A stretch of 64,000 nt of DNA from Fibrobacteria bacterium. Its GTDB lineage: Bacteria; Fibrobacterota; Chitinivibrionia; Chitinivibrionales; FEN-1185. Location: the NCBI GenBank assembly GCA_037447435.1, contig JBBIGR010000011.1, positions 45,002 through 109,001 of the forward strand, written 5' to 3'. The number at the start of each line of letters is the position of its first letter. Position 1 is the first letter of the stretch. Shown here in pieces: positions 57,001-64,000 of the stretch. The position numbers are program-made.

Positions 57001-60000
57001 CGTGCCGTTGATTCCATGACAACGATCGGTAAAGGCCAACGAATGGGAATATTTGCAGGCAGCGGCGTTGGAAAAAGCGTCTTGTTGGGGATGATGGCAA
57101 AAAACTGCAAATCGGACATAAACGTTATTGCCTTGATAGGTGAACGAGGTCGCGAGGTACGGGAATTTATCGAACGCGATCTTGGTGAAGAAGGACTCAA
57201 GCGTTCCATTGTTGTTGTCGCAACATCCGATCAGCCCGCATTAATCCGTTTAAAAGGTGCAATGGTCGCGGCAACAATCGCAGAATATTTCAGGGACAAG
57301 GGCAAAGACGTTTTATTCATGGTCGATTCAATCACAAGACTGGCGGCCGCACAGCGTGAAATAGGACTTGCTATTGGTGAACCGCCGGCAACAAAAGGCT
57401 ACACGCCTTCTGTTTTTGCAATGCTGCCGCGTTTTCTGGAACGCGCGGGAAATTCCAATGCGGGAACCATTACCGGCTTGTTCACGGTCCTTGTTGACGG
57501 AGACGATATGGATGAACCGATTTCCGATGCCGCTCGCAGCATTTTGGACGGCCATATTGCACTGTCGCGCAAACTTGCTCATCGAAACCATTATCCGGCC
57601 ATCGACGTATTGGAAAGCATTTCGCGTTGCATGCCGGATGTGGTGACGCAAGATCATTTGGGAATAAGCGGAAGAATCAAAGACCTCATGGCCGCCTATA
57701 GGGAAAATGAAGACATCATTCAAATCGGCGCATACGCATCCGGCACCAGCGCACGGGTAGACAAAAGTATTCGGGTGCACGATATTCTCGATACGTTTTT
57801 ACGCCAGGGCCGAAACGATAAGAACGACCTGGCCGAAACCATGAAAAAACTTGCGGAAATAGATTCCATGACAAAAGGATAATGCAATGAAACGGTTCCA
57901 ATTTAAATTACAAGCGTTGCTTGAAATAAAAAAAAGGGCCGAAGACGACATTAAAAAAAAACTGGGAGCTAAAAACAGGGAAATTTTATCTTCACGTCAA
58001 GAGCGTGTCGACCTTGGCAAGAAATTGGAATCGTTTTTTGTCGAAGAGAAACAGCAGCGCTTGCGGGTTTTGGACTTATTGTCGCTTCGATTTTCGATTT
58101 CATATCGAAGCCATTTGCAAAAAGAAATCATTAAAAAAGAACAAGACATCCGCGCGCTCATGCTGGAACAGGAACAATTGCGTGGAAAACTCGCGTTTGC
58201 CCGAAAACAGAGCAGGGTGCTGGAGCTATTGAAAGAAAAGAAACTATTGGAATGGAAAAAAGAATACCAATTGGAAGAGCGGGAATTTGCGGACGATATA
58301 TCGCAAAAAGGATTTATCAGGCGAATGCATGCGGCGGAAAAAGAAGCCCGAGCAATCGATTGACAACCCGACAGTACACCGAAAGAAAGAATATATAAAA
58401 ACATGCGCCCGGCTTTTCTGCTTTTTTTTTATATGATCTTTTTATCGGCCGCCGTTGCTCTCGGCGGTTCATATACGGACAATAATTTCCGCAATTTTTC
58501 GACCGCAACGAACCTTAAAAACCAGGACAGCCTCCAGCTTTCAATCAGCAATTTCATTCTAGCCAAACTGGAAACAATTACGAGGCCGGGAAATACCAAT
58601 TCCCGCATGCGCGCGCCCGACGTTACAGGCAGCGGAATCGGTAAATTTTCTTTTTTCTGGGCCGATTCAATAAAAACGAATCATCCTTTCGATAATATTT
58701 ATAAAAGGGATTATGTGGTGACCGCAACCGGCGTCGATTCGTCGGCCGGCCCGGTCAATTATTGTAATTATGCAAAACCGCAGGTCAACTATCTGCATGT
58801 AGACAAAGGAACAAACGGGTATTTTCTTTCTTTCATAACGCCCAATACCGATTCCCTCAGAGTGTTTTCGGAACCGGGTACGATTGCAATTGCAAGGGTG
58901 GGAGGCACCGGCGGATCCCGTTGGGGATCGCAATGCTATTGGCGTAAAGATACGTGTTTGGTCGTGTTCCCAAAAGTAAGCGACCAAAAATTGTTGATGA
59001 GGCGCATTTATCTAGTCGGCAATACCGTGACGCAGTCTGCCAAAGAAGACACTGTTTATTCCACTGCCGATGTCGGAAATCATCCAATTTCCAATCCCAG
59101 CCTTGCATCCGACAATCTCGGAAATGTGTTGATTATGTGGTTAGACGGCCCGCCCAATCCGTTGCCCGGCTTTACAAAGTCGTTGAAATGCATGGTTTAT
59201 AACCCAAACAGGGCCAAGTCCGATAGCGCAAGCTTTACAACCACCGTAGACAGCCTCGGACTATCCAATTTTTATGACGAATCGCCGGTTGTGTCGTACG
59301 CACCAAATTCCTTCGGCAGTGTTTGTTGGGACTCGAAAGGAATTCTATTCAGGTCGATTCGTCTTGGGCCGCCTATGATTGTCGACACAGTCAGACTCGA
59401 AGCAATAAGCACTTCGCGGTATCCTGCCATTACAAGCAATGGAAACAATATTGCGGTGGTATGGATGACCGATTCTGCAAACAGCAGTTATTTAAAAATT
59501 CATGGAATAGTCGATACGATAAAACCAGGATATGTTCCTTTTACATCCAATCAGAACGTCACCACTTTTTCCGATATTTCATTGCCGACCGGAAAAATAC
59601 CGGGGAAAGGGCCTCCGGCACCGACCTCTTTTACTTTAAATTGCGCGATGGATTCCCTGGGAAGCATTGCCGCGACATGGCCGCTGGACAGTTTGGTCCA
59701 GATTCGGCTTTGGGCAAACAGGGGAGTAAAGACCGATAGCGGAATTTGGATTTCACAGGCAACTCGGTTTATGACCACGACAACCGATTCGTCGGTCATA
59801 TATCCGGGTTCCTTTTCTTTCTATGATCAAAAATTTCAATTAACCAATAACGATTCGGCGCGATTTTATATTCGTGTCGGACAAGATTCCGCCGACGAAT
59901 CCGCCTGGAGTCCCTGGACGTTGGCTTCGGATTCGGCCGCTTTGGCGGCAAATACCAAAGGCATTAACAGTTTTTTCAAATATAAACTGGTCTTATATCG

Positions 60001-63000: not shown

Positions 63001-64000
63001 TTATACTGAAAATACGGGCTTCTACACGTATCCTAATCCGTACAAACCGGGTATCGATCCCAGGCATTGTTCAAATGCCGCTACGGATCCCTGCGGAATC
63101 TGGTTTACAAACCTTCATGCCTTGCGCAAGGACGTCAATGAAGTCGTCATAAAGATATTCGGCATGAATGCCAATCCGGTTTTCAACACGAAAACAGCAG
63201 GGGTTTTAATCCACTTTTCCCAAACCGAAAAAGACCAAAAGCCGCAATGGAAATGGGACACCCGAAACCAGCGCGGGGAATTGGTCGCATCCGGCCTTTA
63301 TTTTTACGTTATTACGGACAATAACGGCAAAATCCTGATCAAAGGGAAATTGATGATCGTGAGATAGGGGATATATCAATACCATCAAGTTTTGAGACAT
63401 TCCTAATAATAAAAATCTATCTTCGTCTTCAGAATGTTCCGGATCAAAATATTCCCTTGCATTTTCATCATAAAAAGCCGTTGAAGCCTCAGAAAAATGC
63501 ACACTATGCGATAAGTTCGTTGCGGCATGAAAATAAGGAGCGGCAAACCCATGTGCACTAACTGGCACGGAAGCCGGCATAACCAAGCCAATGCACCTTG
63601 ATTGGGAGGCTGCTCCACTTTTATATATTTTGACAAATTGTTCATCTGCCCCTGCGGAGAATGCGTACCCTAACTGGACCAATGAGTCATTCCATTGGAG
63701 CCGTACTTTTCTCTTGAATGCGACCCGCAGGGAACCGACTAATTTCTGATGACTTGCTTAATGCAAGCCACGGCAGCTGCAAATTATCGCAGGTATGCCT
63801 GATATCCATTATATGTTTGGTACGGATGGCTTTCAGCCAATCTAAGCCATATTCGGAAATGCGAGACGGGGAATAAGTTTGTCAAAGAGCAAGCCAGAAT
63901 TCCTGAGTATGCAGCGGCGGTGCCTTAAAGCGGCAGCGCGTCAATTCATCAGTTTTGGTATTAGGATATATTTTTCTCTTGACACGGGACTTTATCTATA

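Follow-up and report, generated by a model that had tools for sequence, protein, structure and literature searches.

In the Bacteroidota, the motility linked to the T9SS takes the form of gliding. In the T9SS attachment complex of Porphyromonas gingivalis the surface protein PorZ is held by the PorV-family barrel PorQ (PMC7463736), and in the PorP/SprF shuttles a cargo has a dedicated barrel, tied to a periplasmic TPR and beta-propeller partner (PorE) or to the motility machine (PMC9143113; PMC12618676). A large surface protein on a flagellar sheath has been reported for Helicobacter pylori, FaaA (PMC3622936). According to one account of the Fibrobacterota, flagella are ancestral in this phylum, which also has the T9SS, and the flgD-like domain of a fibro-slime protein was read as a hint of flagellar attachment (PMC4704652); Chitinispirillum alkaliphilum is described as flagellated and as attaching to chitin particles (PMC4814513). 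Here we describe P1, a large protein whose gene closes a flagellar operon in many swimming Fibrobacterota, a phylum of fiber degraders, together with two further proteins, the operon-embedded P2 and the unlinked barrel P3. Our preferred reading, to which we assign a probability of roughly 0.5, is that P1 belongs to the flagellar regulon and is a cargo of the T9SS, with P3 as its anchor, probably acting as a polar or flagellar adhesin.

Like PorZ-PorQ and PorU-PorV, the proposed pair would consist of a protein at the surface and a PorV-family barrel that anchors it; P1 likewise combines a propeller with a C-terminal domain (CTD), this CTD matches the PorZ model best, and P3 barrels match the PorQ model more often (23/24) than PorV (15/24). 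The likeness to PorZ does not extend beyond the CTD (31 bits, the cut-off being 260). P1 further differs in its long Ig stalk and in tracking flagella rather than the T9SS, and P3 is larger by about 650 residues. As in SprB-SprF and PG1035-PorP-PorE, each dedicated barrel would serve a single large, adhesin-like cargo that retains its CTD. These type B pairs differ in that none of 44 P1 CTDs matches TIGR04131 at E 0.1, P3 belongs with the PorV/PorQ rather than the PorP/SprF barrels, it unites barrel, TPR and propeller in a single chain without an OmpA domain, the P1 and P3 genes are unlinked, and the motility concerned is the flagellum and not gliding. FaaA is, as proposed for P1, a large surface protein that reaches the surface by non-flagellar export and serves the flagellum (PMC3622936), but it is a type V autotransporter to which we claim no homology.

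P1 is an ORF of 1654 aa at 58403-63367 (+) of the window, by which we mean the whole stretch of 64,000 nucleotides analyzed. It starts 39 nt past fliJ and is the last gene of the block flgB, flgC, fliE, fliF, fliG, fliH, fliI, fliJ; coordinates and Pfam assignments thus confirm its place at the end of flgBC-fliEFGHIJ, as given in the earlier note. The genome under study (G000) has one copy. The features discussed below are:

51090..51104, + strand: sigma-54 (-24/-12)-type box ahead of flgB, by pattern match, the sole one in the 64-kb window
51152..57882, + strand: flgB, flgC, fliE, fliF, fliG, fliH and fliI, by Pfam; widest gap 370 nt, between flgC and fliE
57887..58363, + strand: fliJ (PF02050, E 2.9e-7)
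58403..58465, + strand: P1 signal peptide, aa 1-21, assigned by eye from a hydrophobic stretch ending in small residues
58466..60058, + strand: P1 head, aa 22-552, as modeled by AlphaFold2 (pLDDT 85.9)
60059..63016, + strand: P1 stalk, aa 553-1538, as modeled by AlphaFold2 (pLDDT 90.1)
63017..63367, + strand: P1 CTD, aa 1539-1654, PorZ/PorU-type by fold match and predicted to bind P3

The box ahead of flgB follows what we take to be the sigma-54 (-24/-12) pattern, for which the background rate is 0.0033 per 330 nt. Such a box precedes flgB in 7/7 relatives checked, and in G000 another heads the motE-fliK-flgD-flgE operon. The shared strand, the short gap, the lack of a terminator-like site on the + strand of the fliJ-P1 interval and the box at the head are as expected of a flagellar sigma-54 operon, and suggest that P1 is transcribed last in it, alongside the basal body. 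The Pfam results of the earlier note were reproduced: the only match in P1 is Big_5 (E 1.9e-9, previously 2e-9), with a sub-threshold CHU_C signal (E 0.046, 14 bits against 27). Annotated homologues are titled "hypothetical" or "Ig-like domain-containing".

The N-termini of 44 homologues resemble that of P1, consistent with a signal peptide, as expected of a T9SS cargo. Two AlphaFold2 models, built on 44-row alignments, bear out the proposed seven-bladed propeller and Ig domains including Big_5. The predicted propeller (approximately aa 50-443) is set between the halves of a probable beta-sandwich, read from strand order and not from a fold-search match. The stalk is modeled as three Ig-type domains, a PapD/ASH-like domain and four Big_5/CopC-like domains (eight Ig-type domains in total; Z 10.4 to 2qsv, Z 10.1-10.8 to CopC and Ldt Ig domains), with an estimated length of roughly 30 nm. 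The label "integrin-alpha-like", also given to the head previously, appears generic rather than specific. The propeller is best matched by CylK (7ron; Z 31.6, rmsd 3.3, 332 aligned), whereas integrins (Z 23-28) score among the WD40 propellers, and the Foldseek matches have a TM of approximately 0.3, rmsd of 17-65 A and 6-10% identity. A seven-bladed propeller followed by Ig-type legs is shared with integrin alpha ectodomains as architecture only; P1 has no FG-GAP match in Pfam, no membrane anchor and no beta partner. At greater distance the head matches proteins that combine repeat propellers with cadherin or CTD domains and suggest no function, and the ESM Atlas gave no usable match to whole P1 (best 0.79 for aa 22-555, to be taken as leads only). 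The propeller matches are generic and point to no ligand for the head. Along P1, conservation is highest in the CTD and among the lowest in the head; the number of Big_5 repeats, and with it stalk length, varies among homologues, with a drop in occupancy at aa 1300-1500.

P1 is rich in D-(S/T)-(A/I/L/V/M/T), the O-glycosylation motif described for Bacteroidota (PMC8550257). It contains 51 such motifs, compared to 8.5 +/- 2.7 in shuffles, an excess that ranks 2 of 2321 ORFs, and the motif is enriched in 44/44 P1 sequences (z 6.5-19). The CTD of P1 contains none, and all 44 CTDs together contain one. P1 is probably O-glycosylated in the periplasm, and the excess combined with a motif-free CTD fits passage through this compartment with the CTD kept free for a partner.

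A predicted beta-sandwich CTD at the very C-terminus is typical of T9SS cargo, and that of P1 aligns with the CTDs of PorU (Z 10.2, rmsd 3.0, 93 aligned), PorZ (Z 9.1, rmsd 2.7, 86 aligned, 29% identity) and NucA (Z 8.4). The PorZ model NF052228 is matched by 42/44 P1 CTDs, but full-length P1 reaches 26.5 bits against 260, in the CTD only, and is therefore not a PorZ. With the CTD classes of PMC10994853, the T9SS-like sorting domain proposed earlier stands as a T9SS-type CTD; its class is not CHU_C/type B, as the TIGR04131 result indicates, and is by fold search rather PorZ/PorU. FlgD models, which would point to P1 as a FlgD derivative, weakly match only 5-6 of the 44 CTDs. G000 encodes T9SS machinery (SprA_N, E 4e-23 in a 2114-aa frame; 10 PorV_fam matches; 57 type A CTD matches). 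Together, CTD and signal peptide support P1 as a T9SS cargo.

The gene is more widespread than the 11 other Chitinivibrionales genomes in which the order fliI-fliJ-P1 had been noted: the gene order is kept, and P1 occurs in 49/81 genomes of the order and 88/296 of the phylum. Two half-protein profiles, with four candidates scored per genome, matched 89 and 86 of the 296 genomes before pruning, and two weak matches were dropped, one confined to the propeller (G006, E 1e-6, 855-aa frame) and one to the CTD (G273, E 3e-9). fliI is present in 134 genomes (133 detected, plus G237, in which it is cut by the contig end). P1 was found in 88/134 fliI-positive versus 0/162 fliI-negative genomes (87/133 without the unpublished G253), and its link to flagellar genes spans the Fibrobacterota. 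As SprA is present in 286/296 genomes, P1 tracks the flagellum and not the T9SS, and T9SS loss is ruled out as the cause of its absence. One family accounts for 135 of the 162 fliI-negative genomes, so that only about six losses are independent; three fliI-negative genomes carry FlgI, probably reflecting an assembly gap.

The 46 flagellated genomes without P1 (f6, 8; g8, 3; g11, 7; g19, 2; f18, 12; g40, 12; G086; G274) indicate that P1 is an accessory, dispensable for building the flagellum, and not a core flagellar gene shared by all flagellated relatives. Genomes of family f5 with flagellar genes had been reported to have no detectable homologue; family numbering differs, and the f5 of our set is positive in 27/46 genomes, the empty families being f6 (0/8) and f18 (0/12). 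A hidden, divergent P1 in the negatives is not supported: ten P1-negative genomes re-searched with all candidates gave CTD-region matches only, and the P1 profile matched neither the 20 + 7 fliJ-containing loci of flagellated P1-negatives nor the surroundings of five orphan fliJ genes. A search outside the phylum returned 45 loci, of which 43 are titled as Fibrobacterota taxa, one as "uncultured bacterium" and one as FCPU426 (E 4e-4, without P1 or fliJ by profile); since a single order supplied the search patterns, absence elsewhere does not follow from this. Among cultured organisms, C. alkaliphilum carries P1 as CHISP_1870.

P1 lies right after fliJ in 84/85 assessable relatives (G258 was not assessable and G253 was left out): fliJ is directly 5' in 56/57 assessable fetched loci, and by coordinates fliI lies ~0.5-0.8 kb 5' on the same strand in 28/28 further genomes. 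The sole exception, G081, has P1 in another flagellar operon, between flgE (plus a few unrelated ORFs) and flbD-fliL. In three genomes (G087, G088, G227) fliJ and P1 have moved together away from fliI, and in-frame FliJ-P1 fusions with 31-39% mutual identity occur in G227, P0068 (three members) and P0075. The fusions keep the signal peptide after the FliJ part, and hence argue for tight coupling rather than contact. The genes after P1 and before flgB differ among genomes, which puts the exact end of the conserved block at P1. In the non-flagellated congener G064, the upstream neighbor of G000 and the downstream neighbor of G061 are both present while flgB to fliJ-P1 is gone, two other genes occupying the space between. 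The split in the P1 of G061 falls on an N and probably reflects faulty assembly.

An ordinary large Ig protein could hitch-hike beside fliJ, since adjacent genes are often deleted together and related genomes are not independent. This account is largely refuted and in our view highly improbable: neighbors on both sides turn over and survive flagellar loss, P1 was relocated into a second flagellar operon, and the unlinked P3 is lost with it. The proposal that P1 is made together with the flagellum is instead strengthened by the sigma-54 box, the relocation, the FliJ fusions and the loss with flagella while SprA stays; we infer that P1 may also work physically with it. A no-family gene often found 3' of P1, c6, was ruled out as a partner, as it is kept in the non-flagellated G063-G065.

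P3, the candidate anchor, is a 979-aa PorQ/PorV-family barrel protein encoded outside the window (G000:C36:52400-55336), unlinked to P1. The barrel is followed by a TPR, a 5'-nucleotidase-like domain and a TolB-like propeller; the metal motifs of the nucleotidase look degenerate relative to the motifs that we assume for this fold. Among congeners, P3 was found only in the flagellated G000, G061 and G067. G000 has several PorV-family barrels, six of which are also kept in the non-flagellated G063-G065; two others were likewise not recovered there, one adjoining its own large CTD-type gene. P3 occurs in 61/81 genomes of the order, including 49/49 with P1. It occurs without P1 in G030 and G046 (fliI region unassembled) and in eight g11 and two g19 genomes, and is missing from the nine non-flagellated genomes and from the flagellated g8 and f6. 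In other orders, 76 of 215 genomes were checked: 37/38 P1-positives have P3 (35 clearly, G243 as fragments and G240 doubtfully, the one miss being G258), compared to 0/38 P1-negatives, of which 20 are flagellated and which gave TolB-type matches only.

As to family, all 24 P3 barrels match PorV_fam, at a likeness of family level only (89.7 against 90). PorQ NF033711 is matched with 46 bits against 220, short of a full match, and TIGR03519 is found in 2/24 (E 0.003 at best), which sets P3 apart from PorP/SprF. PF11751 was not found in G000, in a search that was also blank in every control. The predicted complex of the P3 barrel with the P1 CTD scored 0.90, versus 0.01 for the best control, the controls including no paralogous PorV-family barrels; as PorV-CTD complexes have been solved (8GLK), the score may reflect these known structures. 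The mark applied to such scores was reached by 116/157 solved and 2/215 mismatched pairs, and runs of the complex share at least 98% of contacts, with a partner pLDDT of at least 80.

The predicted interface also degenerates where P1 is absent. The g11 genomes keep a diverged P3 without P1, and their barrels retain 42-51 of 95 conserved non-interface residues and 2-8 of 26 interface residues, versus 22-47 and 7-19, respectively, in 20 distant P1-positive barrels of other orders (a contig end truncates one of the g11 copies, and one control is clipped). The predicted central binding loop is deleted in five g11 barrels and replaced in three, and in g19 the barrel part of P3 is lost. This pattern favors pairing of P3 with the P1 CTD, and we regard secretion of P1 via the T9SS and anchoring by P3 as highly probable.

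Secretion and anchoring of this kind would equally serve a whole-cell adhesin of the swimming stage that is merely co-regulated with the flagellum. The evidence for linkage is genetic throughout, P3 lies away from flagellar genes and has no sigma-54 or sigma-28 box upstream (0/24 regions), and many flagellated lineages lack P1. We nevertheless consider such an adhesin unlikely, as P1 is still in a flagellar operon after its move in G081 and is fused to fliJ elsewhere, P3 is also lost in non-flagellated genomes despite being unlinked, and a second motif-rich Ig protein is encoded between flhB and flhA.

This second protein, P2 (C31:38192-39937), has 581 aa, a Big_9 domain, a lipoprotein-like N-terminus and no CTD, and ranks 4 in D-S/T-aliphatic motif excess. 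It is present in 28/81 genomes of the order, every one P1-positive, and lies directly after flhB in 20/20 loci fetched from these 28. In other orders it is weakly matched at the same place in 3/3 P1-positive loci. G052 and G053 have no P2 at this position, and flhB was not found in G250. The P1-negative G281 has a motif-rich ORF that does not match P2.

The position of P2, together with the single copy and strongly conserved CTD of P1, would also suit a structural flagellar accessory, in which P1-P3 and the lipoprotein-like P2 form a glycoprotein coat of a sheath or a collar of the rod at its passage through the outer membrane, and no adhesin; FaaA on the H. pylori sheath offers a precedent (PMC3622936). 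A least conserved head and a variable stalk length are, in contrast, as in adhesins, the paper describing C. alkaliphilum does not use the word "sheath" in its main text, and P1 was lost repeatedly in flagellated lineages, which makes this possibility quite doubtful. More speculatively, and only tentatively, P1, P3 and P2 might form an ancestral envelope-spanning flagellar accessory: a glycoprotein stalk delivered by the T9SS and seated in the outer membrane, whether at the motor or on a sheath, and tied inward via the periplasmic domains of P3, as the flagellar counterpart of SprB-SprF.

Returning to P1 as a P3-anchored cargo and probable polar or flagellar adhesin, we infer the following course from secretion to adhesion. 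P1 would be exported by Sec and, after probable periplasmic O-glycosylation, pass through SprA. Its CTD would then be bound by P3 and keep the protein on the surface, as in PorZ-PorQ and SprB-SprF, while the TPR, nucleotidase-like and TolB-like domains of P3 would fix the pair from the periplasm, as PorE does for PorP. The Ig stalk could keep the propeller head clear of the cell, with the flagellated pole or a flagellar membrane as its likeliest site, so that swimming cells may catch and hold on to surfaces such as chitin or plant fiber.

In the open literature, supplements and subscription papers being outside this scope, we found no description of the P1 gene, and CHISP_1870 does not appear in the main text of PMC4814513. 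P1 is apparently undescribed, and would work like the known cargo-barrel pairs while falling outside both the PorZ-PorQ and the type B-PorP/SprF families. The co-distributed barrel P3 and the operon-embedded P2 are new relative to the earlier observation. P1, P3 and P2 provide a definite set of genes, spread across the phylum, by which the T9SS and the flagellum are linked, and would extend the principle of a cargo with its own barrel beyond the type B pairs of the Bacteroidota. The role of P1 can be tested in cultured C. alkaliphilum through CHISP_1870, and P1 is a candidate for how swimming polymer degraders may dock on chitin and fiber.

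The distribution of P3, the membrane barrel predicted to hold the T9SS-type C-terminal domain (CTD) of the propeller-Ig protein P1, largely follows that of P1 itself. Barrels of this family are found at the following positions of the genome under study (G000; C, contig; L, fetched locus):

C36:52400-55336 (L252:6401-9337), P3, a single protein that combines a PorV/PorQ-family barrel with TPR, nucleotidase-like and TolB-like domains
C4:49232-55451, C63:12084-16136 and C11:25499-35085, other PorV-family barrels adjoining large CTD-type genes

The adjacency of these other barrels to large CTD-type genes suggests that G000 has several cargo-barrel pairs. 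P3 is also present in two flagellated genera without P1 (loci L298-L307), in g11 with the predicted cargo loop gone and in g19 minus the barrel; the periplasmic part may therefore have a role of its own. Elsewhere (C8:55962-63382, L120), a gene with an FGE-sulfatase domain, the fold of PorK/GldK, lies directly upstream of the sprA-like gene.

In G227 (L112:7039-12096) and in protein entries P0068 and P0075, FliJ, a cytoplasmic protein, forms an in-frame fusion with the P1 signal peptide; an internal restart or a cleavage might allow FliJ to function there. Separation of fliJ from fliI occurs in several genomes of family f13 and genus g63 (loci L200-L204, L206, L113): fliJ lies away from fliI together with P1 in G087, G088 and G227, and without P1 in genus g40 and in G274.

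Further genes of G000 and its relatives are:

C31:38192-39937 (L128:14193-15935), P2, 581 aa, Ig repeats, motif-rich and lipoprotein-like, conserved in position between flhB and flhA
L051:10757-12121 and relatives, C55:25643-26917 in G000, secreted-looking conserved protein of ~420 aa, paired with a TPR gene
window 30940-35269, second flagellar block, flgF-flgG-flgA-flgH-flgI
window 43115-45391, 47920-49641 and 35313-36920, long ORFs of 758, 573 and 535 aa

A 913-aa paralogue of P2 (C22:35523-38264) is located away from flagellar genes. The gene for the ~420-aa protein, which had no match in Pfam or NCBIfam, often lies 3' of P1 or fliJ, yet is kept after flagellar loss. None of the three long ORFs had a Pfam match; homologues of the 758-aa and 573-aa ORFs occur in the same order in the non-flagellated congener G064. 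Seven flagellin-like genes are spread over six contigs of G000.

Across the whole G000 genome, many proteins that look exported show strong enrichment of the D-S/T-aliphatic motif, the O-glycosylation signal of Bacteroidota, and this sequence pattern suggests that Fibrobacterota may possess a general O-glycosylation system of the Bacteroidota type.
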